A program made the position numbers and the translations under genes. From the UHGV virus genome UHGV-1364187: 64,000 nt of DNA, one strand, 5' to 3'. The notes beneath the pieces were generated by a model. The model had not been told where the DNA came from. It did not search any database and saw nothing but the letters and a program-made list of their open reading frames with translations. The stretch comes from a virus. The stretch's first letter is position 1. Each line of letters starts with the position of its first letter. This document shows positions 3,761-61,544 of this stretch, piece after piece.

Positions 3761-3795
3761 TATTATTATTCATTTATATAATATATAATTGAAAT
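3761..3795 (-). promoter_or_regulatory. Conserved phage promoter/leader motif. On the minus strand it reads AATTATATATTATATAAATGAATAATAATATTA, followed by AAAGGAGATGTTT and the ATG.
   Basis: The same roughly 35-nt motif, with small variants, occurs at 2381-2440, 4215-4246, 7489-7523, 9071-9102, 12591-12628, 15423-15475, 18773-18808, 40811-40845, 50607-50647, 56270-56306, 58956-58984 and 60349-60380. Each copy sits 20-50 nt upstream of a minus-strand start codon. Confidence 0.55.
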
Positions 3796-4204: not shown

Positions 4205-4326
4205 CTCCTTTTAATATTATATTCATTTATATAATATATAATTATAATATTTATCAATTTCAATAATATTTGAAAGTATAAATTGTCTCTAACTTATCTA
4301 TAATGATTAAATAAGGAGGAATTAGG

Positions 4327-5367
4327 ATGGTCTTAGAAGAAAATTTAAATGATATGGAAGTTATCAAAAGATACAAGCAATTTTTTAAGGAGATGATTTG
4401 GTTTAATAAACCAAACATATCTGAGCAAGAATTAGAAGATGTAATGAATTGGTCAATACAGAAGAGAATCAAAAATTCATCATTAGAATTATATGATTCT
4501 TATAAGGAAAAACGAGCAGATTCATCAGTATTAGAATGGCTAGAATACTTCTATGCTAATGAACCAATTATAACTCCCAATGGGGTTATGTTTAAAAAAC
4601 ATAATGAAGAGCTTAATCCTGTGAATAAAATGATACAGGGATTCTTAAAAACACGTGCTAAATACAAAAAAGAAATGTTTAAATATCCTAAAGGATCTCG
4701 TGAATTTGAAAAATATAACCTACTTCAACTTCTCTCCAAGATTGATGCTAATAGTATATATGGTTGTTTAGGTAATTGGAGTGCTGTATATTATAACGTA
4801 AATGTTGCTAGTTCAGTTACAGCATGTGGTAAATCTTCTATTTCAGCAGCAGGTTTAGCATTTGAACAGTTCTTAGCAAATAACGTTAAATTTAGAAAGT
4901 TAGACGAAGTTATAGTATTTATTAATCATATCATTAAAGAAAAACCAAATAGAAAATTCAATGATAAAGATATTCTAGATAGAGATATTACAGTAGAAGA
5001 ATGTTTTATAAAAGTAATGTCTACATGTGGTCATGGTTATACTCCTTCTATGGAAGATTGTGAAATCATATGGGATATTATTAGTAAACTTAACAGTGAA
5101 GATCTTAATAGAATATACTATAAGAATAATCTATTAGAATTCTTTGACAATAAAGTAATGACTAATATGGTTATAGAAGTATTAAAGAGACTCAATAAAC
5201 CTTGGATGGATCCGAATAAAGTTCCAAAAGAAATTGAACTTGAAATGGATACAATGTGGGATTTAGTAAGTGAATATGTATTTTATAAATATCAAATCAT
5301 TGATAGACAAGATAGATTAGAGTTTCTTCCAAGAAAAATTACATGTATTATAGACACCGACTCTTTT
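4327..5367 (+). CDS. Family B DNA polymerase, C-terminal (palm/thumb) polypeptide, exon 1
   Basis: Carries motif B (LLQLLSKIDANSIYGCLG, the K..NS.YG pattern) and motif C (IIDTDS). The ORF stops immediately after DTDSFA at the intron boundary. Strong RBS taaggaggaattagg. Confidence 0.8.
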
Positions 5368-5772
5368 GCATAATAAACTGTTTTATTATGTAAATAGGAG
5401 CATTATATAGTAATATATAATGAAAACCCTTTTAATTGCTGGGAAGCCTTAAAGCTCACCTGCCTATATTTTAATGAATATAGGAACGAAAGTAGAAACA
5501 AGTGGTGAGATAGTATATGGTGTAAACCTAAGTACTGCAAACAATGGGTAATCAGCAGCGAAGTTTCTTATAAAGTTATAAGAAGAACGTTCAACGACTA
5601 TCGAAAAGACATGTTTATATAAACATGGAACTGAGTAGAGTACACTCAAGTGAGTGGAAATGGAGGGGGTCTTATTTTATATAAGATCATGATATAGTCT
5701 GCTCACTATGGAAACATAGTGAAGTTCATAAGAGAACTGCATAGAATTAACGACTCTATGTGAACATAAAGG
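5368..5772 (+). ncRNA. Group I self-splicing intron, with no homing-endonuclease ORF, inside the DNA polymerase gene between motif C and KKRY
   Basis: A roughly 400-nt ORF-free segment, GC-richer than its surroundings. A P7-like pairing is visible (ACGACTAT ... ATAGTCT). The core AATCAGCAGCGAAG..AAGAAGAACGTTCAACGACTATC is shared with two other introns in the window. The flanking exons are in the same frame. The exact splice junction is uncertain by about 3 nt. Confidence 0.6.
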
Positions 5773-6849
5773 AATATTTTGAACTTAGATTTTTGGTATA
5801 GATTTATCAAAGATAAAGTAATCGGTATTGATATGAAAATTAAACATGAAATGTATGACATTGCAGAAATCATTAAAGCTGATGAATTTGGTGATAGAGA
5901 AATGATGAAGCCTGCAGAGATAGTAGATATCGAAGATGATTATGATTTCTATGAAGATGAAACAGTAGAAATGGAAAGATTAATCAATCCTGCAAAATTA
6001 GTACCAAATGACTCATTAAGATATTCTATAATAAATATTATAGCATACTTATGTGGTAATATGATTAATGAAGAGATGGTATTATACACAAAACAGAACA
6101 ATTCTTATAGTCCTGATAGACCATGTAGTCTTATTATGAAGAATGAATTCTTATTTAAAAGAGTTTTATTGACAAATGTAAAGAAAAGCTACGCTAGCAT
6201 CATAGAGGTTCAGGAAGGAAATATAGTACCATCTTCCAGTTCATTGGACGTGAAAGGATTACAAATTAGAAAATCAACACTACCAAAAAGAACAAGAGAT
6301 CAATTACAAAGTATATTATATGAAGATATACTAAACTCTGGAGATAATCTCGATCAAAGATGCATACTCAAAGATATTATATTATTAGAAAAACAAATTT
6401 ATAAATCACTTACATCTGGTAGTAAAGAATACTTTAGACCAGCACAAGTTAAAGCTATGGGATCATATGAAAATCCACTAAGAATTTCTGGATTTAAGGG
6501 ATGTGTTGTATGGAATGAGTTAACAGATCTTAATACAGAAAAACATGATCTTAATATTAGAAATGCTGTTGATATTATCAAAGTAGTTTTAAATGCAAAA
6601 ACTGTCGATAAATTAAAAGATTTTCCTGATGTATATGAGAGAGCTGTGAAGCTATTAAACGATCCATCATTTGCAGGGGGAATTAATGGTATATCTGTAC
6701 CATTAGGAGTAGAAACACCAGAGTGGTTATATCAAATTATCGATTATAATACAATTATTAATGATAATTTATCAGTAATGCCATTAGAAAGTGTAGATAT
6801 AATTATTGGAAATTCCAATATAAACTATTCAAATATGGTGCAAATGTAA
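5773..6849 (+). CDS. Family B DNA polymerase C-terminal polypeptide, exon 2
   Basis: Contains the KKRY-type motif (NVKKSYASII) and thumb-like sequence. It is in frame with exon 1 after intron removal. There is an in-frame TAA at 5767, so exon 2 cannot begin before 5770. Confidence 0.7.
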   Translation, partial: NILNLDFWYRFIKDKVIGIDMKIKHEMYDIAEIIKADEFGDREMMKPAEIVDIEDDYDFYEDETVEMERLINPAKLVPNDSLRYSIINIIAYLCGNMINEEMVLYTKQNNSYSPDRPCSLIMKNEFLFKRVLLTNVKKSYASIIEVQEGNIVPSSSSLDVKGLQIRKSTLPKRTRDQLQSILYEDILNSGDNLDQRCILKDIILLEKQIYKSLTSGSKEYFRPAQVKAMGSYENPLRISGFKGCVVWNELTDLNTEKHDLNIRNAVDIIKVVLNAKTVDKLKDFPDVYERAVKLLNDPSFAGGINGISVPLGVETPEWLYQIIDYNTIINDNLSVMPLESVDIIIGNSNINYSNMVQM

Positions 6850-6892
6850 AAAAATAAAAGAAGAGTCAATTAAGACTCTTCTTTTATTATTG
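6849..6892. terminator. Bidirectional intrinsic terminator (AAAAAATAAAAG-stem-loop-stem-TTTTATT format)
   Basis: A perfect hairpin (aaaagaagagtc aattaa gactcttctttt) flanked by A-runs and T-runs, between convergent genes. Confidence 0.7.
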
Positions 6893-7481
6893 TTGCTGGA
6901 ATAATTAATTTATTGTATCTCATCTCTGCATGTGTGCCATACTCATCATATGGAAGATTATTATCAACTCCAGCAAAGTTTAAAAACTCGTTAGAATCTA
7001 CTAAATTATTATTGCTTATAATATTTCCTATAGATTCTAATGATCCATCTAATTGATTTTTATCAATTTCTAATGTATTAGTAATTCCTTTATCACTATC
7101 ACCCCATTGAACATGATATTCATATGGAGCATCCGATATTGGATTACCATATAAATCACATTGTCTAACTTGACATAATCTCATATCAACTCCAACTGTA
7201 GGTCTCATAATTCCATCATAATTATAAAAACAATTAGTTTGAGTATAAAAATGTACAACACAATCATTTGATATATCTGTGTTTATGTAGTTAGATTTAA
7301 TATAGTCTATAATCCATTGTGTAGTGTTACTATCGTTTCTATATACAAAATCGTTTCTAAACATAATTTCATCATAGAATTCGCTTGTATCTGGATTTAG
7401 GTTACAGTCATCAGATACAATAAGACAATTAGTCTCATAGTTTAATAATACATATAAATTTTTTAACATAACACATTCCAC
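6870..7481 (-). CDS. Hypothetical protein, 203 aa
   Basis: ORF with the conserved cassette upstream (7489-7523). Convergent terminator at 6849-6892. Confidence 0.45.
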   Translation of the reverse strand: MECVMLKNLYVLLNYETNCLIVSDDCNLNPDTSEFYDEIMFRNDFVYRNDSNTTQWIIDYIKSNYINTDISNDCVVHFYTQTNCFYNYDGIMRPTVGVDMRLCQVRQCDLYGNPISDAPYEYHVQWGDSDKGITNTLEIDKNQLDGSLESIGNIISNNNLVDSNEFLNFAGVDNNLPYDEYGTHAEMRYNKLIIPATIIKEES

Positions 7482-7685
7482 CTTTTCATAATATTATTTT
7501 ACACATATATAATATATAATCTAAAATGATTTTACTTAAAAAATAAGTATAGAATTTATAGTTCTATACTTACGAATTGTATACATATCTTGTCAATCTA
7601 TTATAGATAGACAAGATATGCTTTTTCTCCATTTTGTTGTTTACTCTCATATTTTTATCTCCTTTATTTTAGCTTAAAATTATGT

Positions 7686-9020: not shown

Positions 9021-9115
9021 AACTAAACAACTCCTTTAAATTTTTAGTAACATAGACTATTTACAATCATCTATATTCACCTTAATAATATATAAGTGAA
9101 ATATGAGACTTTTAC

Positions 9116-9156
9116 AAAAAAAATAAAAGAAGAGTCCAAATGGACTCTTCTTTATT
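9116..9156. terminator. Bidirectional intrinsic terminator
   Basis: aaataaaagaagagtccaaatggactcttctttattt. Confidence 0.7.
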
Positions 9157-9598
9157 TACTTTCTATTCTATAAGTTGTATCGTATGGTGTACTATACGAG
9201 TTAACTTTAAATCCCAATTTCTCTAATCTTTTTATTTCAGCATTAGAAAAATTATATTGATATGAAGACACTTCTATTGAGATACAATCTTTTGAAATGC
9301 TAGCAAGAAGTTTTTCAACGTTATTAGGTTCTCTTGCAGATTTATAATCATCTGCTTTACATTCTCTTTCAATATCTATATTATACTTAGAATAGAAATT
9401 TTCATGATCTAATATTGGTTCGAGATTATCAAGTACAATCCAGTGTTCTTTACTCCAATTATCAGTCTGGGTTAAACAAAATGCACGAGCTTCTATTCTA
9501 TCAGATTTGATTTCTGCATCTAATATTATATACAAGTTATCATCGTATCTGTATATATTAAATGGTTCATTTTTGAAGTCTTCTAATTTCATTTCCAA
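9152..9598 (-). CDS. Hypothetical protein, 148 aa
   Basis: ORF between terminator 9116-9156 and the ThyA gene. Confidence 0.45.
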   Translation of the reverse strand: MEMKLEDFKNEPFNIYRYDDNLYIILDAEIKSDRIEARAFCLTQTDNWSKEHWIVLDNLEPILDHENFYSKYNIDIERECKADDYKSAREPNNVEKLLASISKDCISIEVSSYQYNFSNAEIKRLEKLGFKVNSYSTPYDTTYRIESK

Positions 9599-9689: not shown

Positions 9690-10697
9690 TTAAATTGCTA
9701 CTGAAGCTTTAATAGCATCACCACATTTATATCCATTAATCTTAATATCTTCTAGTTTAATATTTCTAATATCTTCGCCTAATAGATCTTTAGTAAATTC
9801 AATCTTAGGTAAGTCGTATAATTCTCTAGATAGATATTCTTTTGCCTGATCAATATGATTTTGGTAAATATGTGTATCGCCAAAATTATATGTCATTGTT
9901 CCAACTTGTAATCCACTAATAGCACCCATCATATGTAAAAAGATTCCATATTCTGCTAAATCAAATGGAACCCCTAGAATACTGTCAGCACTACGTTGAT
10001 TTACAATCATATGTAATTTATCATTGATTACTAAAAACTGGATAGAAAATACACAAGGTGGTAAATCTACATAAGGAACACTAGCAGTATTCCATGAATT
10101 AAGAATAATTCTTCTTGAATCTGATTTACTCTTAATAAGTTTTTGTGTAATATCTAATTGGTCTACAATGTTCACAACGACTTCTTGTTCTTGAGTATTC
10201 ATATTATTCATTTCTACATGTTTATTATACTTCCAAGCATTACCATAGATATCTTCATATACTGTAAGTTCTCTAGATGTAATTTCATCATTAAGAATCT
10301 TTTGTTCAAAGATATCGAGTTGTTCTCTATATAGTTTAGCAAATTCTTCATCCTTATCTTTTAATACAGTCCAATTGTCTGGGAATACTGGTCCTGTATA
10401 TTTTTCATTTTCTGGGCATTTTCCCTCAATATATCTTTTAAATTTCCATTCTGTCCAGATATGTACATTTTGCTCTAATAATGTCTTTAAGTTTTGTTCT
10501 CCATTAATGAACCATAAAAGTTCTTTAATAGCTGTTCTATAAGCAGTTCTTTTTCCAGTAACAATAGGAACACTACCATCTGATAAATCAAATTTCATAC
10601 TATAACCAGGAATACGGATAGTTCCTACTCCAGTTCGGTCTGTGCTAACTTCACCTGTTTCTAAAATAGTTTTAATCATTTCTTTATATTGTTTCAT
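9690..10697 (-). CDS. thyA: Thymidylate synthase (ThyA family)
   Basis: The N-terminus DRTGVGTIRIPGYSMKFDLS matches the ThyA pattern DRTGTGT..FG.QMRFDL. The ELLWF motif is present. The active-site cysteine sits in a DLPPC context (LPPCVFSIQF). Confidence 0.9.
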   Translation of the reverse strand: MKQYKEMIKTILETGEVSTDRTGVGTIRIPGYSMKFDLSDGSVPIVTGKRTAYRTAIKELLWFINGEQNLKTLLEQNVHIWTEWKFKRYIEGKCPENEKYTGPVFPDNWTVLKDKDEEFAKLYREQLDIFEQKILNDEITSRELTVYEDIYGNAWKYNKHVEMNNMNTQEQEVVVNIVDQLDITQKLIKSKSDSRRIILNSWNTASVPYVDLPPCVFSIQFLVINDKLHMIVNQRSADSILGVPFDLAEYGIFLHMMGAISGLQVGTMTYNFGDTHIYQNHIDQAKEYLSRELYDLPKIEFTKDLLGEDIRNIKLEDIKINGYKCGDAIKASVAI

Positions 10698-10750
10698 AAC
10701 TATTAACCTCTCTTTTCTAATGTAATTATATATAAGTTTATGGGTGGTTA

Positions 10751-10790
10751 AAAAAATAAAAAAAAGAAGAGGATTAATCCTCTTCTATAA
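10751..10790. terminator. Intrinsic terminator downstream of ThyA
   Basis: aaaaaaataaaaaaaagaagaggattaatcctcttct. Confidence 0.65.
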
Positions 10791-10794
10791 ATTG

Positions 10795-11382
10795 TTATAT
10801 GATATGTTCAGCTGCTTCGATGACTTCACGTCTATTGCATGTGGTAGCATTAATACGTTGTTCTATGTGAATAATATTATCATCAGTACAAGCAGAAATA
10901 TTTAAAGTATTAAACTCAGTATTTAATCTAATAAGTAAATCTTTTATTGTGAAATTCTGTTTCAATGGTTTATTGATATCAATATCAATAAGCATATATC
11001 TATCTTCATCACCATAATATCTAGTTGTTACATGATATCTAGATTTTATGTCAATATTCTTAGACTCTTTATTGTTTATACAATTTGATAATTTTTCATA
11101 TAGGTCAGAAACATCTAAACAATACTGACTACGTGCTCTAATATAATCTATAGTATTTGTTAAAAATTTAGCTTCTTTTTTAGTTATCTTGATATAATAT
11201 TCAGTATTTTCATCTTCAAATTCTTTAAGTTCTTTTTTGATGAATTCTTCATTTAGAATGATATAATTAATAGAACCTTTATATTCTATATATAGAACAT
11301 TTAGTTTTATACAATCAACAAGTTCATGTGTTATATGTGTATCTGTATCAAATTGTATAGTCTCTTCATAAGACATTTTCAA
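10795..11382 (-). CDS. Hypothetical protein, 195 aa
   Basis: ORF preceded by a 28-codon uORF with RBS (about 11383-11470). Confidence 0.4.
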   Translation of the reverse strand: MKMSYEETIQFDTDTHITHELVDCIKLNVLYIEYKGSINYIILNEEFIKKELKEFEDENTEYYIKITKKEAKFLTNTIDYIRARSQYCLDVSDLYEKLSNCINNKESKNIDIKSRYHVTTRYYGDEDRYMLIDIDINKPLKQNFTIKDLLIRLNTEFNTLNISACTDDNIIHIEQRINATTCNRREVIEAAEHII

Positions 11383-12532: not shown

Positions 12533-12639
12533 AATTTCTTTTTTTCATTGATTTTAACATATTATATTTCATAATAAAAAACATCTCCTTTAATATTATT
12601 ATTCAATTATATAATATATAATTAAAACTATTTTACTAC

Positions 12640-16222: not shown

Positions 16223-16639
16223 TTTTTATTTACCCACTTTCATATTTCTTTATGTTTTCTTAGACACTCTATATTTATCAAATATTATATAGTAATAATT
16301 GATATCTTTAACTTAGTATAAATACCATGTTAAAAAAATAAATACTAGAGATTTTACTCTCTAGTATTTATATTATCATTTATGCATTTTAGATTAATGA
16401 TTTATCTTTAATCTTCATCATTTGAATAAGTATCTATATAATATTCATCTTCTATAGAACTTGTATGAACAGTTTCCGTATTTAGTACTTTATCTACTAA
16501 TCTTATACTAATTTTACTAATAGCTTCACTTATTTTCTTAGATACATAATATGTAACTGCTACATATCAAACTAATTTTACTACAAATTTATATCCAGTC
16601 ATAACTTTTTCCATATTAAACTTTTTCATATCTTATCTC

Positions 16640-16903
16640 TCCTTTTTTATTATTTACTACTCTTCGATTTGTTCTTCTGATTCTCTTTTTAATACACTTT
16701 TAATTTTAGATGATATTTTTGTAAAAACTTTCTTAATAAAATCTACACCACTTGTCATCATAACGAATATACTAAGTACGAATGCTGCACCTATCACTGC
16801 ACCAACAATAATCTCTCCAACTACTGTGAAGATGTCCTTATCAATTTTCTTTGTCTAAAGCTTTCTTGTAATCATTTGCAAATTGTACTAACTCTTTTTT
16901 CAT
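16640..16903 (-). pseudogene. Frameshifted small membrane-protein gene. The leader and start are duplicated from the 9020 locus.
   Basis: ATG at 16903 with the same leader as 9020. After 20 codons a frame change is needed to continue into a 62-codon TM-containing frame (DKDIFTVVGEIIVGAVIGAAFVLSIFVMM..). A second small ORF at 16383-16605 carries an in-frame TGA. Confidence 0.35.
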
Positions 16904-16995
16904 AACTAAACAACTCATTTTAATTTTTAATAACATAGACTAATTGTAATCTATATTCATATTGATAATATATAACTAAAATTTTGAATATTTAC

Positions 16996-17035
16996 AAAAA
17001 ATAAAGAAGAGTCTAATGACTCTTCTTTTATTATT
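16996..17035. terminator. Intrinsic terminator
   Basis: aaaaaataaagaagagtctaatgactcttcttttatt. Confidence 0.65.
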
Positions 17036-17050
17036 TATTTTATATCTTTA

Positions 17051-18479: not shown

Positions 18480-18788
18480 TTATCTTTTGCAACATGTTTT
18501 TTTTGGAATATATTTGTATAATATATTATCGTCATCAAGATAATCTAACGTGTTTGACATTAAATTATATCTATCATTTCCTACTGGTTCTTTTGTGATA
18601 GCTATAATAGGTCTATAATATTTATTCTTTGTGTATGCATAAACATTTTCAATTTCTGTTTCTACAAATTCGATACACTTATTAATAAATCCTTCCTTAT
18701 CTTTAATACTTTTTAAATCTTTAATAATTTGCATTGTTAATTCTTTGTTTTCCATAATAAAACATCTCCTTCTAATAATATTATTCAC
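18480..18788 (-). CDS. Hypothetical protein, 102 aa
   Basis: Conserved cassette upstream at 18773-18808. Confidence 0.45.
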   Translation of the reverse strand: MNNIIRRRCFIMENKELTMQIIKDLKSIKDKEGFINKCIEFVETEIENVYAYTKNKYYRPIIAITKEPVGNDRYNLMSNTLDYLDDDNILYKYIPKKTCCKR

Positions 18789-18840
18789 TTATATAATATA
18801 TAATTAAATTTTTTTTTAATCATATATTATTGTAGTGACT

Positions 18841-18925
18841 ATATTAAAGTTTTATTAAACTTCTAACAAGAAAGTAAGGGGCTTTTAAAGGCGTTGACCA
18901 AGAACCCTTAAAAGGTAGATAAGGG
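18841..18925 (+). repeat. 85-bp element containing TTGACC and a TAAGGG/CCCTTA dyad (copy A). An inverted copy lies at 60725..60808.
   Basis: The sequence tttattaaacttctaacaagaaagtaaggggcttttaaaggcgttgaccaagaacccttaaaaggtagataag is about 90% identical to the reverse complement of 60725-60808. Confidence 0.7.
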
Positions 18926-18980
18926 AAGAACAAAGATAAGACTTTAATACAAATACAGATATATAAAAGGAGATAATAAC

Positions 18981-19586
18981 ATGATTAAAAAATTCAAACA
19001 GCAATTACAATTTATGAAGTTAACAAAATTTCTACGTTCCAAAGACATATCAATCTCTAAAAATTCAAATAATGAATATACACTTAAAGATGATACAATT
19101 GTCTTTGGGACATTTACTAAACAACAATTAATGAACGAATTTTACAAAACAATGACAGATTTAAATATGAATAAATCTTTAACCAAAAATATTTCAATAA
19201 CAAATGTATACTTTTATAAACATCTTGAAGTTTTCTTAAAGATATTTAAGTTTGAAATATTATATTCATTATCAGAATCTTCATCAATTCACAAAGCTTA
19301 TTATAATGATGAAGAAATAACTTTTACACAACTTAATGATTGTGTTGGGATATGTAGTAAAGATAGTAAAATAATTGTATTATATAAATACAATGATGAT
19401 AATGGATTTGAACCATATATGTCTGAAGATAATATAATTCCACAACAGGTTAGTAATCTTACGAAATATTATATAAATCAGATTATTATTAGAACATTGA
19501 TAAATACTCTTAAAGAAAATGGTATTGCTATTTATAGCAATACTACATTATTCAAATACAATAATAAAATTATAGAGTTACAATAA
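18981..19586 (+). CDS. Hypothetical protein, 201 aa
   Basis: First gene of a plus-strand operon downstream of the 85-bp repeat element. RBS aaaaggaga. Confidence 0.5.
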   Translation: MIKKFKQQLQFMKLTKFLRSKDISISKNSNNEYTLKDDTIVFGTFTKQQLMNEFYKTMTDLNMNKSLTKNISITNVYFYKHLEVFLKIFKFEILYSLSESSSIHKAYYNDEEITFTQLNDCVGICSKDSKIIVLYKYNDDNGFEPYMSEDNIIPQQVSNLTKYYINQIIIRTLINTLKENGIAIYSNTTLFKYNNKIIELQ

Positions 19587-19626: not shown

Positions 19627-20262
19627 ATGAATAAACCAGGTTTAAAAGATATTATCGATTATATTAAAAGTAGTGGTATTACTGAATGTGAAAGTACAGA
19701 TTGTGGTGATTGCCCATTCAATGTGCATTCACCAGAATCGAAAGAATTTATTGGAAATCCAAACATTTGTGTACTTCTTAATGAAGTAGCAAAGACTACA
19801 GAATCAAAAGAAACTATTATTGAATATACTGATAAATCATTACTTACTCATATCAATGGGGAAGAATGTTTATTAGTTCCAGTTGGAACTGATGGTCTCA
19901 TAGATTCACATTTATGGAGAATTATTGGAATACTATTTGAAGAAGAATATTCAATTGTAAGAAAAGGAATAGATGAAGGTACTTTTGTTTTAGGAAGTTT
20001 TGCTAAATATGATAAGACATATAGATGTGAAAATTTCACATTATGTTTTATAGTAGTAAAAGATAAATCTATGTATAACGATAGTGGTACAACTAATCGT
20101 AGTGATGTATTAGAAAATGCATTATATAATGTAAGAAAATCTATACATTCTACTAAATTTTTAATCCCATATGACATCGGATGTAGATTAGATTTTGAAA
20201 CAGTGTTAACGATAATAAACGAACAACTACATGGTTGTACTGTTATCATTGATAATAAATAA
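19627..20262 (+). CDS. Macro-domain-like protein with an N-terminal cysteine-rich extension
   Basis: LLVPVGTDGLIDSHLWRIIG resembles the macro N-terminal diphosphate-binding stretch. FLIPYDIGCRLDFETV resembles the macro C-terminal motif (.FPAISTGvYG.P). Confidence 0.35.
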   Translation: MNKPGLKDIIDYIKSSGITECESTDCGDCPFNVHSPESKEFIGNPNICVLLNEVAKTTESKETIIEYTDKSLLTHINGEECLLVPVGTDGLIDSHLWRIIGILFEEEYSIVRKGIDEGTFVLGSFAKYDKTYRCENFTLCFIVVKDKSMYNDSGTTNRSDVLENALYNVRKSIHSTKFLIPYDIGCRLDFETVLTIINEQLHGCTVIIDNK

Positions 20263-20283
20263 AATGAAAGGTAGGTAATTAGT

Positions 20284-20763
20284 ATGATCACAGAAGTTAA
20301 AGGAAATATTTTCAATTTTATCAAAGAAGGAGATTATTTAATTCAGCAAGTAAATACAGAAGGAGTAATGAGAAGAGGAATAGCTAAACAAATTAAAGAA
20401 TTATTTCCAGATGTAAATGAAAGATATGAAACATTTGTTAGATTTTCTAACAAGTTTAATCTGTTAGGAGCATGTCAAACATTAGACACAAAATATAAAG
20501 GTGTAAATCTTAATATATGCAATTGTTTTGCACAAGATTTACATACTTATTATGATGGACATTTAACAAATTATGAAGCTTTAGAACAATCATTGAAAAT
20601 TGCATTATGGAGTTCTAGAAGCACAACAAGATTTTTACTTCCAAAGAATATTGGATGTGGAATTGGTGGAGGAGATTGGAAAGTAGTATATAATATTATT
20701 GAAAGAGTATTTGTTAATAGAGAAGTTCTTATTGTAGATTATGACGGTTCAGAACTTATATAA
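20284..20763 (+). CDS. Macro-domain-like protein (ADP-ribose binding/hydrolase fold)
   Basis: VKGNIFNF..YLIQQVNTEGVMRRGIAKQI matches V.GDIT...DVIVNAAN..L.GGGGVdgAI. FLLPKNIGCGIGGGDW matches vAFPaIstGvyGyP. The length, 159 aa, fits a single macro domain. Confidence 0.45.
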   Translation: MITEVKGNIFNFIKEGDYLIQQVNTEGVMRRGIAKQIKELFPDVNERYETFVRFSNKFNLLGACQTLDTKYKGVNLNICNCFAQDLHTYYDGHLTNYEALEQSLKIALWSSRSTTRFLLPKNIGCGIGGGDWKVVYNIIERVFVNREVLIVDYDGSELI

Positions 20764-22110: not shown

Positions 22111-22545
22111 TTGATTATGAAAACAAACAAAGAATATATGGAAATGGCTATTAAAGCTTCACAAAATAGTAACGATGAACACACTAAAGTCGGATGTATT
22201 ATTGTATCAAAAGAAGGATATATTGTATCTAGAGGTCATAATCGTATCATTAAAGATACACTACCAAAAGGTAGAGATGGAGAATGGTTAAATACAAAAT
22301 ATCCATATGTACTTCATAGTGAAATCGATGCTTTAAATAAAGTTTATCATAGAAATTTATTAGAATGTGCAAGTATTTACGTGACACTATTCCCATGTAA
22401 TAATTGTATGCTTGCTTTAGCAAATGCTGGGATTAAGAAAGTGTATTATATGTGTGATAAATATGCAGATAAAGACTTTACAATTGCAGCTAAGATTATT
22501 GCTAAAGAATGCGGTATAGAATTAGAACAAGTGGAGGTGGAATGA
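22111..22545 (+). CDS. dCMP/cytidine deaminase, zinc-dependent
   Basis: The HSEIDAL and PCNNC motifs (H.E ... PC..C) define the cytidine/deoxycytidylate deaminase zinc site. Confidence 0.85.
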   Translation: MIMKTNKEYMEMAIKASQNSNDEHTKVGCIIVSKEGYIVSRGHNRIIKDTLPKGRDGEWLNTKYPYVLHSEIDALNKVYHRNLLECASIYVTLFPCNNCMLALANAGIKKVYYMCDKYADKDFTIAAKIIAKECGIELEQVEVE

Positions 22546-37852: not shown

Positions 37853-38878
37853 TTGGATAAAGGAGGAGTTATTATGAATAACTTAGTAATCCCAGCTACT
37901 ATAGAAGATAAAAATGACAGTAGTTTTATGAATGGTATTTCTCTTAATTTAGATTTCTTTAATGGTGAAAATGAAATAGCTACATGTGATATAGAACCAA
38001 TGGTTACATCAGAAAAGAAAAAAAGAGGAAGACCAGCAGGAAGTACTAATAAGAAAAAGAAAGAAGATAGTGTAGAAACAAAAGAGACTGCTGACGGTAC
38101 AGTTATTGTTGTTGCAGATGATAACAAATCTGAACATTTACCAACAGTATACTCTAATGAAGATTATATGAATGGATTTGAATTAGGTAATAGTGTAATC
38201 AGACAATCTATTGCACAATTAGATGAACTTGGATATCAAGTTATGGAAGAGTTCAACAAAGTAAAGAATTCTCAAATGAAATCTAAATATGTTGTTCTTC
38301 CACAATTAGCATCGGCTATTAGTTCTATTATCAATAGTAAGATTAGTGCTGGTAATAGTATTAATAAAACAACAAAAGATGCATTTGATCTTGAACTTAA
38401 ACGTATGAAAGAAACAAATGCAACACAAAGTGAAATGTCTGATGAAGAATTTATTATGAATGCTTATAATGCATATATTTCTGCACCAGTAGGTGCACAA
38501 CCAATGGCATTACCTCCATCAATGGTCAACATGACAACTGCAGGTGATCAGATTGTTAGAGCTGCTATTGGAAATTCTAATGATGGATATAGTCAGTATA
38601 TGGGTAATATTACACCAGAACAAAACTTAATGAATTATGAACATAATCCAAATGTTCAAACTGTTGTTGTATACGATGTTGCAAATCCAAGAAATATGTA
38701 TTTTGATGTAATTGACATAACAACAGGTCAAAGTATTCCTAATGTACCAAAACCTGATGCTATGTTTTTGGAAAATCTTACATTAGATCAACGTAATATG
38801 GTTGCAAGAGATACTAATCTTGATAGAACATATAAGTTGATTTTATTAAATGCTAATAGTTCTATTGGGAATTATTAA
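37853..38878 (+). CDS. Hypothetical protein with an AT-hook
   Basis: KKKRGRPAGSTNKKKK contains the RGRP AT-hook core. Strong RBS, and terminator at 38881-38925. Confidence 0.45.
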   Translation: MDKGGVIMNNLVIPATIEDKNDSSFMNGISLNLDFFNGENEIATCDIEPMVTSEKKKRGRPAGSTNKKKKEDSVETKETADGTVIVVADDNKSEHLPTVYSNEDYMNGFELGNSVIRQSIAQLDELGYQVMEEFNKVKNSQMKSKYVVLPQLASAISSIINSKISAGNSINKTTKDAFDLELKRMKETNATQSEMSDEEFIMNAYNAYISAPVGAQPMALPPSMVNMTTAGDQIVRAAIGNSNDGYSQYMGNITPEQNLMNYEHNPNVQTVVVYDVANPRNMYFDVIDITTGQSIPNVPKPDAMFLENLTLDQRNMVARDTNLDRTYKLILLNANSSIGNY

Positions 38879-45650: not shown

Positions 45651-45938
45651 GTAATTCTATTAATTCTGGATATTTTTCTATATCTAGTTTGATTTTAAAA
45701 TCCAATATATGCTCATCATTATTGTATGCTATTTCAGTAATATAACATCCAGGATAACACTACTCTATATCTTTTTTATATTTATCTATATGTGCTTCAT
45801 TCGTATTTACAAAGTTATATGTCTTTTTGCATTTTTCTATTTTATCTATTATATTTTCTATAATTCTTTTATTTTTTATATTCATACACATAATTATATA
45901 ACCTCCTTAAATTATTATATTTATGTACTGTATGATAT

Positions 45939-45980
45939 AAAAAAATAAAAAAGAAGAGGATTAGTCCTCTTCTTTTGTAA
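45939..45980. terminator. Intrinsic terminator
   Basis: aaaaaaataaaaaagaagaggattagtcctcttcttttg. Confidence 0.65.
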
Positions 45981-46257
45981 ATTTTATAATAAAGTTATTT
46001 ATACGTGTATTTGTTTGTAAAGGAATTGGTATACCATTTTCCCATAATATAAGATATTTCATTCTACACTTATTACACTTAAAATAACTTATATAATTAG
46101 CAGCTTTATCTATAGATGAAAAATTATTCATCCTAAGCATTAATTGATAATTCATAGGTCTTCCATTAATATCATACAATTCAATAGAATGTTCAGATAA
46201 ACAATTTCTACATACAGAGTATGGTACTATTATTGCTGGTATCTCTAATGAACCCAT
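45961..46257 (-). CDS. Small zinc-ribbon protein
   Basis: Cys pairs CRNC ... CNKC. Paralogous in pattern to ORF 46911..47225. Confidence 0.4.
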   Translation of the reverse strand: MGSLEIPAIIVPYSVCRNCLSEHSIELYDINGRPMNYQLMLRMNNFSSIDKAANYISYFKCNKCRMKYLILWENGIPIPLQTNTRINNFIIKFTKEED

Positions 46258-50563: not shown

Positions 50564-50723
50564 AATAAATTCCTCCTATTTATAAAAGATTATATTTTTT
50601 TAAGTAATATTCATTACTTATACACCTTAATAATATATAATTGAAATTTATATTACTCTGGTATTTTTTCTAATTACAATATAGTTTACTTGCAGTTAAA
50701 GTTTTAATATAAAGAATAGTATA

Positions 50724-53563: not shown

Positions 53564-53985
53564 TATATCCAGGAATAAATGTAGCTGGAATATTATTTGG
53601 TTTTATTTCTGCTGGTACAAGACAATTATTATATAATGCTCTTTCTTGCTCCAACATTATTTGAGCTGGAGTGTACATTCCTTCCTTATTAGGAGCTATA
53701 TTATTTGTATCTATAGCTGGAACAAAATATGCTGGTCTTATTCTCTGAACTAATGTCTTCTTAAATACCATTCTTAAGCCTATAGCTTTAAGATAAGTAT
53801 GCATAATTTGTGCAGTTATATTATTAGTTTCATTATCTATTTGTACATCCACGTTATATGGATCATCAGTAAGAATATTCTTAGCTAATCTTCTACCATG
53901 TGTACTAGCACTATTGATAAGTAGCATTACTAATAATAACTCAGCATCTACGTGCATTAAATTTGAAGCTTCCATAGACCCACCA
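53532..53985 (-). CDS. RNA polymerase beta subunit C-fragment, exon 2
   Basis: GGSMEASNLM..INSASTHGRRLAKNILTDD..LKAIGLRMVF parallels the beta C-terminus GGQRFGEMEV..SDDVNGRTKMYKNIVDG..LKEIRSLGINI. Confidence 0.55.
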
Positions 53986-54448
53986 CTACACAAATTGTGT
54001 AGCAGACTATATCACCACCATATACTTTAAAAAAGTACTTAGGTGCCTCCCATTTCGGATATACTATATCCTACTCTACTCACTTCGTCTATATCTAATT
54101 TATTAGATATACCTTATTTTTAACTAGATTACTAGTATATTAGCTTTCGATAGTCGTTGAACTTTAATCTTTGAATATAGTTTTATATTTATATATTATA
54201 TTTGATATTATTCAAAGATTCTTAGCTGCTGATTGTAGATCTGTTACGTTAACTTAGCACCTATTATTGAATAGGCTTTTATCTCAGCATATCAACACAG
54301 AATCAATTTTTTCTGTCTTTCGACGACATTCACACCCATCCTTACGGATCATGTTGTAGTTTGATTCTGAATAACTACTTCCCAGACAAATTAAAGAGGT
54401 TTTTACTTCTATCTTTTTCAAGATAAAAGGCACATGTATGTCTATGCA
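53986..54448 (-). ncRNA. Group I intron in the RNAP beta gene
   Basis: Read on the minus strand it shares AATCAGCAGCtAAG..GTTCAACGACTATCGAAAG..GATATAGTCTGCT with the polymerase intron. Splicing CCAGT|..intron..G|TGGTGGG restores the frame as ..YSRTPVGGSMEAS.., which parallels the conserved beta segment ..YSLVTQQPLGG... Confidence 0.6.
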
Positions 54449-56219
54449 ACTGGTGTACGACTGTATGGTGACTCGTATAATTTACTTGCACGAGATCTTG
54501 TATTTTGCCCTCTTACATTAGTTGCTGATAAAGATGTTGTTGAGAATTTCTCTTCTGCAACTTGTTTTAATCTGTAATAATATATATGACCAGCAATAAG
54601 TTTTCTTCTAGTAGGTATGGCTCTATAATTACCCATAGAATCTTTTTGTTGAATCATAACTGTATAAGGTTCGATCCAATCAAAATGTTTATACATTTGA
54701 TCTAATAAATCTATACCATATGATTCTGTTATAGGTTCTATTTGGAAATGAATACAATCATAAGACTTGATACTGTCTAAGAATAATTTCTTATCTTGTT
54801 CTGACATATTGTCTACTATATTTTTTGTATATCTGTACATATTAGGACTTACAAAAGATAAGAAATCAAAGTACATTTGAAACGCTTCTTCATCTGTGCA
54901 TAATGGAGATCTCATTCTTTCTATAATTCTAGAACTTATAAAATTAGATTCCATTTCAATATGTTGTCCAGGATTAAGACGTCCTACTATACCTGCAGAA
55001 TTCCATATTGCGTCTGCATGTTTTCCATTGTCAAATAAAGGCATTAATTCTTCTGGTAAGAATCCAGCAATAACACCTTTACCTCCATATCTATTAGTAA
55101 TCTTATCACCAATTTGTATACGACTAACTTCATATACCATGAAATCAATTACTAAGAAAGAGAATTCATTATCTTTTTCATTCAAGAAATGTTGTCCGTC
55201 TAATATTCTCTTATGAAATAGATATAACTCTTCTAAGTCATATGATTTTTTAATACTTTTATCATTTACAATTGGTTCTAATACATTAACTATTTCTCTA
55301 GAGAATCTTTGTTGATTCATATAAATCATAGCTAATTGAGAGTATTTAGAATCTGTAAATAGTAATTCTGGATCGTTACAATATATATCACAATCTATTA
55401 GTACACCTGACCCTATTGTAACTTTAACATCAGAAGTCATTATTTTTCTTAATCTATCTTGGCTTGCAGAATAAAATTGTTCTTCATTTTTCTTTAGACG
55501 AGTACCCATAAGAATACCATCTTTTACCTCTTCTCCTACAAAAGGACATACTTTATAACTACCATCTTTACCATAAAGATTCAATGGAACGTTATTAGTA
55601 TTTATACTTATACGTTTTGGTTTGAATACTGGAGTATCAAATTTTGGACGAACAGCTTCGCTTAGAATAATACCATCTTCGCAAGTCTTAGCTATATTCA
55701 TAAATACTCCATTAAGATTTATACCATCCATCTTATTACCATAATCATCATAAGATGAGCTTTTTCTTATTACATCACCTTGTTTAATTACATCACCAAC
55801 TTTTTTACTATCCATATATTTATTATTATACTTATATCCATTTGTTTCTGTAAGATAATTATAATCTACTCTATGATATATAGTATAAGAATTATTAGTT
55901 GGATTGCGTAATATAAGAATATAATCATGTTCTGGTAAATGTTCAAATTTTGATATCTTAGCAACTATCTCATATTCCATATCAGCTAACAATACAGCAC
56001 TATTATATCTACCATATTCATTAGCATATCCAGTATCACAGAATGCGATTTCTGAATTAATAAGATCTGTTCTATGATCATTATGAACATTATACATCTT
56101 CTTTCTTGATGCTGCATTATGATTATTGAACGGTTCTTTCAATCCTTTAGACAATACGTAATCTAATTTCTTTGGAACGTATTGATCTATTCTTGTTAGT
56201 GGATCTGTTATTATTGCCA
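54449..56219 (-). CDS. RNA polymerase beta subunit C-fragment, exon 1
   Basis: GDKITNRYGGKGVIAG matches the beta motif (..NRHGNKGV..). The probable start is the ATG at 56219 after RBS caaggaggag; the track start at 56286 is upstream in frame. Confidence 0.6.
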
Positions 56220-56301
56220 TGTTTCTTCTCCTCCTTGAATGTTTAATATATGATAGATATAAGAAAAAGTTCATTATATCTATCATATATATAATATATA
56301 A

Positions 56302-56763
56302 TTATGCGACGTTTTGGATCATAGATAATATGTCATCTGTAGATGATGTTAACCCTACTTCATCTTCTTCTGGTTCTTCATAAGTATCAGATAGCATAGA
56401 TTTCATCTCTTCTAAGACAATTGTATTAAATACTGATCTAAACTCTGAGTCTGTATTAAGTTTATTCTTAAATTGTTTTTGAGAGAATTTCATATCACTT
56501 CTATCACCTAGGTACAAATATGCACCTGCACCATTAAGAACTCCACGTTGTTTTAAGAACATAAACATTGATAAATCTGCATCAAATCCATCACTTTGAC
56601 TAAATACTAATGGAACAGATTGACCAGCTTTATTTGTTCTTGATTTAACAAGTGTTACCTCTGTAATGTTTCCGTCTAAGTCGAATACTTCTCCTTCTTT
56701 TAACTTAGATCCATCATCAAATCTAATAATATTATTTGCTAAGTATATAGGTGTATTGCCGCC
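56302..56763 (-). CDS. UvsX/RecA-family recombinase, exon 2
   Basis: GGNTPIYLANNIIRFDDGSKLKEGEVF..VTLVKSRTNKAGQSVPLVF parallels UvsX GGGTGPMYSADTVFIIGKRQIKDG..VEKSRTVKEKSKF and RecA TTGGNALKFYASVRLD. Confidence 0.6.
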   Translation of the reverse strand, partial: GGNTPIYLANNIIRFDDGSKLKEGEVFDLDGNITEVTLVKSRTNKAGQSVPLVFSQSDGFDADLSMFMFLKQRGVLNGAGAYLYLGDRSDMKFSQKQFKNKLNTDSEFRSVFNTIVLEEMKSMLSDTYEEPEEDEVGLTSSTDDILSMIQNVA

Positions 56764-57138
56764 CATAATTTTATATTACATACGATCGCTACTCGTATTC
56801 TATAATTTTCATTATAGATTAGACTATATCTTCATCCTTATTATTAAGGAGCACTCCATTTCGAATACGCTTGTATTCTACTCTATTTCTAGATAGTCGT
56901 TGAACGTTCTTCTCATATAAGAAGCTTCGCTGCTGATTGTCCATTACAAATAAGACTTAGGATTTTGTCCATATCTCATACTAACCGCTTTTTTCTACTT
57001 TCGTAACCATCACGCTTATCTTTACAGATTACGTTGTGGTGGGTTAGTCTTTAGGAGTTCCCAGCAATTAAGAGTGTTTCCTAAATGCTCATTACTGAAC
57101 ATTCTCCCCAGTTATGCAATACGTTTAGGGAGTGATTC
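56764..57138 (-). ncRNA. Group I intron in the recombinase gene
   Basis: Read on the minus strand it has the same core as the other two introns: AATTGCTGGGAA..CGAAAGTAGAAA..AATCAGCAGCGAAGCTTCTTAT..AAGAAGAACGTTCAACGACTATC..GATATAGTCT. The boundaries are approximate. Confidence 0.55.
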
Positions 57139-57961: not shown

Positions 57962-58012
57962 AAAAAATAAAACGTAGGCTACCATTTAGGCAACTCTACG
58001 TTTTATTTTTTA
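57962..58012. terminator. Bidirectional terminator between the recombinase gene and the 308-aa gene
   Basis: aaaataaaacgtaggctaccatttaggcaactctacgttttatttttt. Confidence 0.65.
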
Positions 58013-58936
58013 AGGCATAATAATATTCTCGAATGTTTGTAAGTTGTGAACAACTTCTAATATTCTAGGATAATCTGGACATGCAGAAATATCAAATCTT
58101 ACTCTATCGAAATTACTATTAAGCTTATAATCTTGTGAATATACTATTAATACTTTTCTAATATTATCTGATGTCATACTATCTAATAGATCTAATATAG
58201 CAAGATTGATTGTTGAATTAATGAAACTTGCATCAGGACCAAATGCAGCAAGTTCATTCTCTGTATAAATATCATACATAACTCCAATAAACAAAGGAGT
58301 CATATGAGAATATAACTCTTGATAGATATTTACTATCATTTGTTCTGTCATTAATTCTCTAGACTGTTGTATAAGTTTATTAGTAAGTCTTTTTGTACAT
58401 ATTACATCATCACTATTTGAATATCTACAAATAGCAATATCTGTTGCAATATGATCTGGTAAACCAATACCTATAAGTTTACTAATAATTGTTCTGTTAA
58501 TTGTTCTAGCAATAGTCATAAGTGCATTCATTGTATATTGATCTTTGTCTTCTAATACTGCATAATCATAAACTAATTTGTTCAAATAACAGATATTTGA
58601 ATGATCAATATACTGTTCTTGAGATAATACTTGATTGAGCACCATTAAGAATTTACTATTCATAAATAAACTAATATATCTACAATCATTGTAACTCATT
58701 ATAGAATATAAGATATCTGAATAGTACATCTTAATTTGTTTAAATAACTCTTCATCAGATATTGTATCAAAATCAATAGTCAACATATCTTCTGGTGTTG
58801 TTAAATTCACGTTTACATACACAGTTTTCTTCGCCTCCTCTTCAGCTTTTTTAACAGAAGCCTCAAAGAATTTATTAAAATTTGGTTTTTGTGGCTTCTT
58901 TAATTCTAAGTTCTCATAAACTTGAAAATCTTCCAT
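58010..58936 (-). CDS. Hypothetical protein, 308 aa, downstream neighbour of the tubulin-like gene
   Basis: ORF with the cassette upstream at 58956-58984. Confidence 0.45.
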   Translation of the reverse strand: MEDFQVYENLELKKPQKPNFNKFFEASVKKAEEEAKKTVYVNVNLTTPEDMLTIDFDTISDEELFKQIKMYYSDILYSIMSYNDCRYISLFMNSKFLMVLNQVLSQEQYIDHSNICYLNKLVYDYAVLEDKDQYTMNALMTIARTINRTIISKLIGIGLPDHIATDIAICRYSNSDDVICTKRLTNKLIQQSRELMTEQMIVNIYQELYSHMTPLFIGVMYDIYTENELAAFGPDASFINSTINLAILDLLDSMTSDNIRKVLIVYSQDYKLNSNFDRVRFDISACPDYPRILEVVHNLQTFENIIMP

Positions 58937-60238: not shown

Positions 60239-60381
60239 AATAAAAATCCCTCCTAAAATATTATATATTATATAATCATGTGTTATAATATATTTTGAAA
60301 TTTAACACATGATAAGATTAGATAATAGATTAAGCTCTATTATCTAATCTTCATTCACTATTATAATATATAATTATAATT

Positions 60382-60594
60382 TTATTTGTTTACAATTTTT
60401 GACATATAATCTAGGTTTTCTTTATACTGAATTATTTCTTCGTTAAGATAATCATTTTGAATTTGTAAATCTATAATTGTTTGATTTTGTTCTTTTATCT
60501 TTTTATTAAGTTGAGTTATGTATCCTATTTCTAAAATTATTGTGAATACTATTAACCCAATTAATATGTAAGATTTTATAGATAATTTATACAT
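60382..60594 (-). CDS. Small bitopic protein with an N-terminal TM helix and a coiled coil (FtsB/DivIC-like architecture)
   Basis: SYILIGLIVFTIILEIGYI TM helix followed by a heptad-rich tail. Confidence 0.4.
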   Translation of the reverse strand: MYKLSIKSYILIGLIVFTIILEIGYITQLNKKIKEQNQTIIDLQIQNDYLNEEIIQYKENLDYMSKIVNK

Positions 60595-60595
60595 A

Positions 60596-60718
60596 TCTAT
60601 TTATTCTGTTTTTGATTATCTTTAACTTTTTTAGCATCTTCTTCACTAACTTCAGTAATACCTAAACCTAAATCACCTTGTTCTTGTATCATTACTAATT
60701 GTTCATCATTATTTCCCA
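60596..60718 (-). CDS. Small acidic 40-aa peptide
   Basis: RBS aggagagattaatat then ATG. The start abuts the second copy of the 85-bp repeat element. Confidence 0.3.
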
Positions 60719-60724
60719 TATATT

Positions 60725-60808
60725 AATCTCTCCTCTCTTATCTATCTTTTAAGGGTTCCTAGTCAACGCCTTTAAAAGCCCCTTAGTTTTTTGTTAGAAG
60801 TTTAATAA
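60725..60808 (-). repeat. 85-bp element, copy B (inverted orientation)
   Basis: See copy A. It runs directly into the RBS and ATG of the 40-codon ORF at 60718. Confidence 0.7.
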
Positions 60809-60812
60809 AAAC

Positions 60813-61544
60813 TTACATAGTTTTTATTTGCTTTACTTTAGAATTTTTCATTGTAAATGGCAACATGTAATCTTCATTAATAAGATTTGAATATAAATGT
60901 GAAGCTATCATATATGCATTTACAGTATTTTTTGCAATACTATCTTCTTCATCTATATCTAAATCTTCCAATCTTACCATACCTGTAGTTCTAATATCAT
61001 TATACATTTGTCCTTTAGCTACCATAGCATCAGCTTTAGGTTTATAAAATTCTGTAGCTACTTTATCAAGACCCATAACCACTAATGCATTTAATTCATT
61101 ATCAGAAGTTAAACTTCCTTTATCTTCATGTGTTAATCTACCAGTTTTACCATCACGTTTATCTATATTAGTTGGGTTACTGTTCTTCTTAGATAGAATT
61201 TGTTTCATTCTTTTTAGATGAAAATATACAACTGGAGCTGGTCTTGTTTCTAATGGATATCCATCTTTAGTATACACTGATGGATTGTATATAGTTTCAC
61301 ATATAGGAACTCCCATTACATCTAATGCATTTTTTATATCTCCATATGTAGGCTCAACTACAAATGGTTTATGATGAAATCTAAAACATAATGGTCTATT
61401 GATAAAAATTTCAAATTCTTTATCTGACATTTTTGAGAATAATTTCTTATAGTATTCTAAATTTGTATTACTTCTATCTAGTTTAGACATTACATCATAT
61501 ACTAGTCTTTCTATTTTATTTCTTACTTCTTTACTAATTGCCAT
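60813..61544 (-). CDS. Hypothetical protein, 243 aa
   Basis: ORF only. Confidence 0.45.
   Translation of the reverse strand: MAISKEVRNKIERLVYDVMSKLDRSNTNLEYYKKLFSKMSDKEFEIFINRPLCFRFHHKPFVVEPTYGDIKNALDVMGVPICETIYNPSVYTKDGYPLETRPAPVVYFHLKRMKQILSKKNSNPTNIDKRDGKTGRLTHEDKGSLTSDNELNALVVMGLDKVATEFYKPKADAMVAKGQMYNDIRTTGMVRLEDLDIDEEDSIAKNTVNAYMIASHLYSNLINEDYMLPFTMKNSKVKQIKTM

Follow-up and report, generated by a model that had tools for sequence, protein, structure and literature searches.

A probable AR9-type late promoter and 5′ leader cassette, present twice in an uncultured gut jumbo phage

We analyzed an 85-nt inverted repeat whose two copies bracket a 42-kb segment within a 64,000-nt stretch of the virus genome UHGV-1364187 (hereafter, the window). 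Each copy lies at the head of a transcription unit. The reading that we favor, with a probability of roughly 0.6, is that the repeat is one late promoter and 5′ leader cassette present twice, and neither a switch for inversion nor a host-type promoter with a repressor site. In each copy, the first ~32 nt would be a late promoter of the type described for phage AR9 (AACA-N6-TA), read by the phage non-virion RNA polymerase (RNAP), and the remaining ~48 nt would be the common 5′ end of two mRNAs, folded into one hairpin that leaves the ribosome-binding site (RBS) free. Copy B would occupy the ancestral site, given that the same promoter stands there in relatives, and copy A would be a duplicate of the whole B intergenic region, from stop codon to RBS, placed before a lineage-specific operon. 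Both operons would then turn on with the late program and carry the same 5′ leader.

The repeat search placed copy A at 18845-18929 on the plus strand and copy B at 60731-60815 on the minus strand, as arms of 85 nt that are 89% complementary. Alignment by blastn matched 18847-18923 to 60814-60737 over 78 columns with 92.3% identity (E about 1e-25). There are exactly two occurrences of the 24-mer TAAGGGGCTTTTAAAGGCGTTGAC, and no match to it arose in 100 shuffles. Similarity between the copies breaks off sharply at both edges, and copy B fills the whole 93-nt gap between the stop codon of an RNAP-fragment gene and the RBS of a gene for a 40-aa peptide. Thus the inverted pair of about 90% identity reported in a first-pass annotation of this DNA is real (89-92% identical), although the coordinates given there for copy B, 60725-60808, required correction.

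A 256,505-bp contig from a gut metagenome (ENA ERZ27229639 k119_250412) contains the window, whose position 1 is record position 38,605. Sequence was readable for record positions 31,068-110,148, that is, 79 kb of 256.5 kb, and our copy counts cover that span. Within it there are only the two copies, with none further in the window and none in the 15 kb of extra flank. The 48-nt half of the repeat, used as a query, had no copy elsewhere in IMG/VR, the JGI metagenomes or the GTDB genomes; three JGI matches were dismissed as chance, falling inside coding sequence of a bacterium of 42% GC. No solitary 48-nt copy was present in the loci or collections scanned.

Independent assemblies from other samples carry copy B (contigs L003-L005) and copy A (L011) in the same context and at 99.8-100% identity, so the repeat is not an assembly artifact, a possibility that the first-pass annotation had raised. 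The two copies are ~10% diverged, whereas the difference between strains of separate samples is at most 0.2%; measured against strain diversity, the duplication is therefore old, and the copies are not being homogenized. Contigs L008, L009 and L010, which come from independent samples and assemblers, all start at 18937-18943, 8-14 nt past the end of copy A. Two others, L002 and L006, stop within copy B. For the starts at 18937-18943, low coverage may be a sufficient cause; contig ends near the repeat may reflect a dropout of coverage, breaks in the assembly graph at the repeat or variation among strains.

Listing all intergenic regions of the window yielded two recurring classes of gene-head motif, which match in sequence the early and late consensus sequences of AR9. 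In that phage, early promoters have the consensus AAATATATATTAT-(6N)-G(+1) and are read by the virion RNAP (PMC5312081), and late promoters have the consensus A(-11)ACA-(6N)-TA/G(+1) and are read by the non-virion RNAP (PMC5312081, PMC7598289). Class 1 of the window, the early type, is AATTATATATTAT-N6-G. It stands at about 12 gene heads, including those of small ORFans, a Bro-N/Ant-like gene and an AAA ATPase; examples, all on the minus strand, are at 3775-3790, 4228-4243, 7506-7521, 12608-12623, 18786-18805, 50627-50642, 56288-56303 and 60360-60375. Class 1 sites are nearly all on the minus strand, and most of them belong to small ORFans between 1 and 19 kb. Strings resembling this motif, TATATTAT(A), occur in intergenic DNA of sampled relatives of ~50% identity (L028 and L034).

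Class 2, the late type, is AAC(A/T)-N6-TA(A), and it heads the genes for terminase, a virion structural protein, the tail sheath, RNAP subunits and replication and repair proteins. A typical site lies 22-38 nt before the ATG, often right after a terminator hairpin. The 6-nt spacer is strongly preferred: AAC[AT]-N6-TA occurs 26 times in upstream-sense intergenic DNA, compared with 6 times for a spacer of 5 nt and 4 times for one of 7 nt, and 24 of the 53 AAC[AT]-N6-TAA sites are in upstream-sense intergenic DNA. At orthologous junctions of relatives with 77-86% protein identity, AAC[AT] and TA are kept at fixed spacing in most lineages while the spacer and flanks drift, which is how a constrained bipartite element would be expected to behave.

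Both copies of the repeat contain a late-type motif, located in the left third of the copy and 17 nt upstream of the hexamer TTGAC(C/T). In copy A the motif is AACA-AGAAAG-TA (AACAAGAAAGTA; 18865-18876, plus strand), with a predicted start at A18876, and in copy B it is AACA-AAAAAC-TA (AACAAAAAACTA; 60784-60795, minus strand), with a predicted start at A60784. Only two mismatches between the copies fall within the motif, both in the N6 spacer. Immediately upstream, both copies share the block TTTTATTAAACTTCT (18850-18864 in copy A, plus strand), which includes a weak AT-only hairpin, AAGTTT/AAACTT; this block recurs in relatives L012 and L019 at their orthologous B site and has diverged in L016. 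The ATG lies 104 nt past the motif in copy A and 64 nt past it in copy B, compared with the usual 22-38 nt, and the two copies are the only late-type sites of the window with long leaders that an intervening early motif does not explain. Copy A is also preceded by an early-type motif directed into it and operon A, AATCATATATTAT-tgtagt-G (18818-18837, plus strand), which has one mismatch to the early motif of the window and whose AATCATATATTAT variant also heads the gene at 58010-58936. On the opposite strand, AATTATATATTAT-ataagt-G (18786-18805) serves as the early-type motif for a divergent gene of 91 aa (18480-18755, minus strand).

The first-pass annotation had instead placed a repressor or activator site over a -35-like element at the TTGAC(C/T) hexamer. 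The hexamer itself is present as described, as TTGACC in one copy and TTGACT in the other, and matches the host -35 consensus at five of six positions in both. The proposal built on it did not hold up, as there is no acceptable -10 element, a late-type motif lies 17 nt upstream instead, and nothing specifically supports an operator. We consider it scarcely credible that TTGAC(C/T)-N16-TAGATA is a sigma-70-type promoter used by the host RNAP. The candidate -10 element TAGATA matches at three of six positions, lacks the final T and has no TG extension; a promoter scan listed no site at TTGAC in either copy; and AR9-type phages do not rely on the host RNAP (PMC5312081, PMC7598289). Because the late motif is 17 nt upstream, TTGAC and the surrounding dyad, at about +6 to +41, would fall inside the predicted transcript.

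The B site of relatives separates the two halves of the repeat. Directly after the stop codon of the RNAP fragment, AACA-N6-TAA is present in L012-L015 (86% protein identity), L019 (77%) and L016 (77%), kept with four different spacers, and the upstream block TTTTAWTAAACTTYT is also kept in L012 and L019. The motif is likewise kept at the four neighboring junctions that we checked, though not in every lineage at each. In contrast, the 48-nt segment is absent from the orthologous B site of L012, L016 and L019. L016 and L019 have a leader of ~25 nt after the motif, and L012 has, within 10733-10990, a strong terminator, a late-type motif, ~170 nt of unrelated AT-rich sequence and a second late-type motif. 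Since these relatives keep the promoter without the 48-nt segment, the promoter half appears to be ancestral at B and the 48-nt half to be lineage-specific. Throughout the clade, the B junction is a hot spot for indels: the leaders of four lineages measure about 25, about 25, 64 and about 190 nt. In relatives of ~50% identity, the B junction is arranged differently and is uninformative.

The lineage-specific half, AAGGGGCTTTTAAAGGCGTTGACYARGAACCCTTAAAAGRTAGATAAG, spans predicted positions +1 to +48 (18876-18923 in copy A, plus strand; 60737-60784 in copy B, minus strand). Its GC content is 41.7%, compared with 26.8% for the window, and the copies agree at 45 of its 48 positions, compared with 29 of 34 in the left part. 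The segment is predicted to fold by pairing of the arms CUUUUAAAGG and CCUUAAAAG, with TTGACC (18893-18898) within the loop in copy A (hairpin 18881-18916, plus strand; -10.1 kcal/mol) and TTGACT (60761-60766) within the loop in copy B (hairpin 60746-60778, minus strand; -8.0 kcal/mol). The hairpin starts at +6/+7, that is, 5-6 nt from the predicted 5′ end, and leaves the RBS unpaired. Pairing of TAAGGG with CCCTTA gives -4.9 to -6.2 kcal/mol, weaker than the CUUUUAAAGG/CCUUAAAAG hairpin (-8 to -10 kcal/mol). Of the three substitutions between the copies in these 48 nt, two are in the hairpin loop and one is at the base of the stem. Rfam gave no match at gathering scores and, at E<=10, only noise (E 0.45-8.9, with scores far below gathering); no tRNA or tmRNA was found. 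A mini open reading frame (ORF) in the leader, TTG ACC/ACT AAG/AGG AAC CCT TAA, in which the two loop substitutions are synonymous or conservative, was given no weight because of the sample of two and poor Shine–Dalgarno spacing.

The same segment can be viewed as DNA rather than RNA. Its dyad, whether CTTTTAAAGG-N13-CCTTAAAAG or TAAGGG/CCCTTA, could be an operator for a dimeric regulator of the phage or host, which when bound at about +6 to +41 would block or activate both operons. We judge this unlikely. The arrangement TAAGGG-N23-CCCTTA-N10-TAAGGG, which had been described for each copy, is complete in copy A; in copy B the third half-site has degenerated to TAAGAG. Both copies retain a 9/10 dyad, a score reached by 5 of 2000 shuffles of the 48-mer's own composition, but also by 123 of 2000 (6%) random 48-mers from the window. 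The antisense strand shows a dyad at least as good, as DNA-level symmetry predicts, the segment is GC-richer than its surroundings, and copy A sits in a divergent promoter region beside a small early gene. However, neither the 91-aa neighbor nor other flanking proteins have a DNA-binding signature, no sigma-70 promoter was called at TTGAC, and the relatives run the same B-site promoter without the segment.

A further alternative, doubtful in our view though deserving of more weight than the operator, grants that the left half is a promoter and takes the 48-nt half for functionless foreign or filler DNA that entered the B leader and was then copied with the promoter during assembly of the A operon. 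TAAG(GG) direct repeats flank the inserted piece, and if the 44 nt separating copy B's two TAAG repeats are deleted, the sequence reads as a canonical late leader of ~20 nt; the segment is absent from all relatives, the junction is prone to indels, its folding is not significant, and it has no Rfam counterpart. Such a scar fits less well with the 48 nt being the best-conserved part of copies that are old and ~10% diverged, or with substitutions that avoid the stem, neither observation being statistically strong. A MITE-like (miniature inverted-repeat transposable element) insertion was rejected: TAAG(GG) repeats do bracket 44 nt, but the 32-nt promoter flank upstream is common to the two copies as well. 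The opposite view of the segment, that it is a new lineage-specific cis-regulatory leader, whether an RNA hairpin or a protein-binding site, is one that we likewise put forward only tentatively. On this view, expression of a newly acquired operon of an ORFan and macro-domain genes, possibly with a role in counter-defense, would be tied to that of the conserved acidic-peptide and DivIC-like module beside the phage tubulin gene, as a layer of control above the AR9-type late promoter. As part of the favored cassette, the leader might set mRNA stability or translation alike for both operons.

The extent of the copies favors the cassette explanation, in that copy B spans exactly the interval from stop codon to RBS and copy A precedes an ORFan; copy A is most likely a duplicate of the B region. 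The pair had also been proposed as a substrate for inversion of the intervening 42-kb segment, whether such inversion is merely allowed or takes place regularly. The copies are inverted and share an exact stretch of 24 nt, the window encodes a UvsX-like recombinase, and, among the low-coverage contigs of other samples, several terminate within or beside the repeat. Nevertheless, none of 13 contigs around the flanking genes joins the gene for the 243-aa RNAP fragment, the repeat and the gene for the 201-aa protein downstream of copy A, as the inverted isomer would (a limited, low-coverage sampling), whereas six contigs span a copy in the native arrangement. The copies have diverged by ~10% without homogenization, and on either side of copy B the genes follow the same order as in relatives that lack the 48-nt half. 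We therefore regard inversion as very improbable.

Several points weigh against the late-promoter cassette. The bipartite 6-base motif also occurs 124 times within coding sequence, and the start sites are only predicted from it. The hairpin is no more stable than those of shuffled sequences (z of -0.33 to +0.17; z = -0.18 for copy A), folding is slightly better for the antisense strand (z = -1.2 to -1.5), a result as compatible with a DNA dyad as with an RNA stem, and two copies of ~94% identity are too few for covariation. It may be that the duplication carried the 48-nt half along as a neutral passenger without function. The B-to-A direction rests on relatives of the B site only, and the copy search covers 79 of 256.5 kb. 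Finally, recognition of the AR9 late promoter requires deoxyuridine in the template strand (PMC7598289), whereas this phage encodes thymidylate synthase, so recognition may differ here. Thymidylate synthase (9690-10697, minus strand) and dCMP deaminase (22117-22545, plus strand) are encoded in the window and dihydrofolate reductase beyond it (18006-18503 in L001), and the phage DNA is therefore probably thymine DNA.

The first gene after copy A (18981-19586, plus strand) encodes a 201-aa ORFan, which matched only itself among 5.8 billion proteins. It is followed by two macro-like genes (19627-20763, plus strand) whose products of 211 and 159 aa are distant paralogs (25% identity, E=2e-8); Pfam Macro is present in relatives of the 159-aa protein. 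The attribution of these three genes to copy A in the first-pass annotation thus holds. With an ORFan at its head, the orthologous A site was not recovered in relatives; the macro-like gene 1.3 kb downstream of copy A has only relatives of 52-56% identity, and the two contigs of such relatives that were fetched are short and have a different context.

Copy B runs, as had been noted, into the RBS of a gene for a 40-aa acidic peptide (60597-60719, minus strand). The peptide is the product of a real, conserved gene: relatives at 77-86% identity share (I/T)(Q/E)EQGDLGLG followed by an acidic tail, and the gene always lies between the RNAP fragment and the tubulin-like gene. The second gene after copy B (60382-60594, minus strand) encodes a 70-aa DivIC-like coiled-coil/membrane protein (PF04977, E=7.7e-5, below gathering score), and it comes next after the peptide gene in three of four lineages, with none called in L019. 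The tubulin-like gene, which the first-pass annotation also placed behind copy B, is not simply part of that operon, since the 143-nt gap upstream of it contains early-type and late-type motifs of its own. Overall, the claim that two transcription units have one shared, unusual control region at their heads is supported.

Upstream of copy B, the gene that ends at its left edge (60813-61544, minus strand) encodes a phage multisubunit RNAP beta fragment (PHROG 3233, E=1.2e-37), and a second split beta fragment, PHROG 3295, is encoded at 54442-56286. The best cultured matches of the former are AR9/PBS1-like phages, at 37-38% identity; it has 157 homologs at E <= 1e-10, the great majority in ENA and Logan metagenome assemblies, on contigs of up to ~250 kb. 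Other products of the window include a tubulin-like protein, terminase, tail sheath, DNA polymerase, SbcC and UvsX-like proteins. The nearest cultured relatives are distant, at 27-38% protein identity, and comprise AR9/PBS1-like Bacillus phages, Staphylococcus jumbo phages, phiR1-37 and the Fusobacterium JD-Fnp phages; no GenBank phage gave a DNA match to the repeat region. We take the source to be an uncultured AR9-like gut jumbo phage.

Comparison with AR9 late promoters (PMC5312081, PMC5449584, PMC7598289, PMC9209446) shows the same bipartite motif and spacing in both copies of the repeat. As in AR9, the late motif heads structural and other late genes, the early motif is near-identical to that of AR9, and, among cultured phages, the split RNAP beta fragments are closest to those of AR9/PBS1-like phages. 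The window differs in accepting T at the fourth position (AACT and AACA are about equally common) and in the nearly invariant A that follows TA, where the AR9 consensus has TA/G. AR9 depends on deoxyuridine at template positions -11 and -10, and the phage studied here encodes thymidylate synthase. In AR9, gp226 is the subunit that gives the non-virion RNAP its promoter specificity. A conserved 48-nt leader is present in both copies of the repeat.

The arrangement also resembles the PeSL (promoter-early stem-loop) cassettes of T4-type phages (PMC2839356, PMC4122927), mobile regulatory elements that are likewise short repeated intergenic units composed of a promoter and a stem-loop. They share an association with lineage-specific ORFans and with indel-prone junctions, and are a plausible vehicle for bringing new genes under phage control. 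However, PeSLs combine sigma-70-like early promoters with terminator stem-loops, whereas the predicted promoter here is of the phage-RNAP late type and the stem-loop is downstream of the start and has no U-tract; no terminator-like site was called in either copy region. PeSLs also occur in many copies in hyperplastic regions with demonstrated recombination products, in contrast to the two inverted copies found here in 79 kb, for which no recombinant was seen.

Stabilizing stem-loops near the 5′ end are known from bacterial and phage mRNAs, examples being the 5′ hairpin of Escherichia coli ompA and the 5′ stabilizers of Bacillus. The predicted leader is similar in that its hairpin begins a few nucleotides into the predicted transcript and precedes an RBS that is unpaired, and in its purine-rich runs resembling Shine–Dalgarno sequences. 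Unlike those elements, its hairpin is of ordinary stability and starts 5-6 nt from the 5′ end, and any stabilizing function would be hypothetical.

Elsewhere in the window, a group I intron (Rfam RF00028; 5377-5721, plus strand; 81.6 bits, E=3e-19) divides a divergent gene for a family-B DNA polymerase into two parts, at 4327-5373 and about 5833-6849. The UvsX-like recombinase gene is interrupted by a 345-nt insert (56767-57111, minus strand), located exactly at residue 261/262 by comparison with the intact 415-aa gene of L016. This insert has blocks of 76-84% identity in common with the intron at 5377-5721 (E=1e-18) and received no Rfam call; it is probably a second group I intron. An RNAP beta gene that is a single 743-aa gene in L016 is here divided into 614 aa and 147 aa by a 466-nt insert (53976-54441, minus strand), whose similarity to the intron at 5377-5721 is only short. 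In L012, the gap corresponding to this insert contains ORFs resembling homing endonucleases with NUMOD4/helix-turn-helix domains. The insert is possibly a third intron.

Near-identical terminator-like hairpins, AAAAGAAGAG-loop-CTCTTCTTTT followed by a T-run, recur at gene ends (6843-6895, 9113-9167, 16988-17038, 45935-45985 and 10753-10786). The 828 nt at 16223-17050 contain no ORF in the ATG-only gene set, nor do the gene calls of the source contig place one there; an early-type motif lies within this stretch at 16965-16974 on the minus strand. The window gave no sign of a replication origin, its GC skew tracking gene orientation.

If the cassette explanation is true, the repeat would exemplify, with modest importance, how a lineage-specific gene block is put under an existing promoter-leader unit, a reuse of regulatory cassettes such as that described for T4-type phages, here with a late promoter of the phage RNAP. 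The occurrence of an AR9-type late motif in a thymine phage, if that is what this is, would mean that recognition here is not tied to deoxyuridine, and it prompts one to ask how a late promoter of the AACA type is read where the phage appears to make thymine DNA. More generally, the early and late motifs of AR9 recur almost unchanged in a family of ~250-kb jumbo phages of the human gut that is represented by metagenomes only, and these motifs would make early and late genes predictable across the family from sequence alone.

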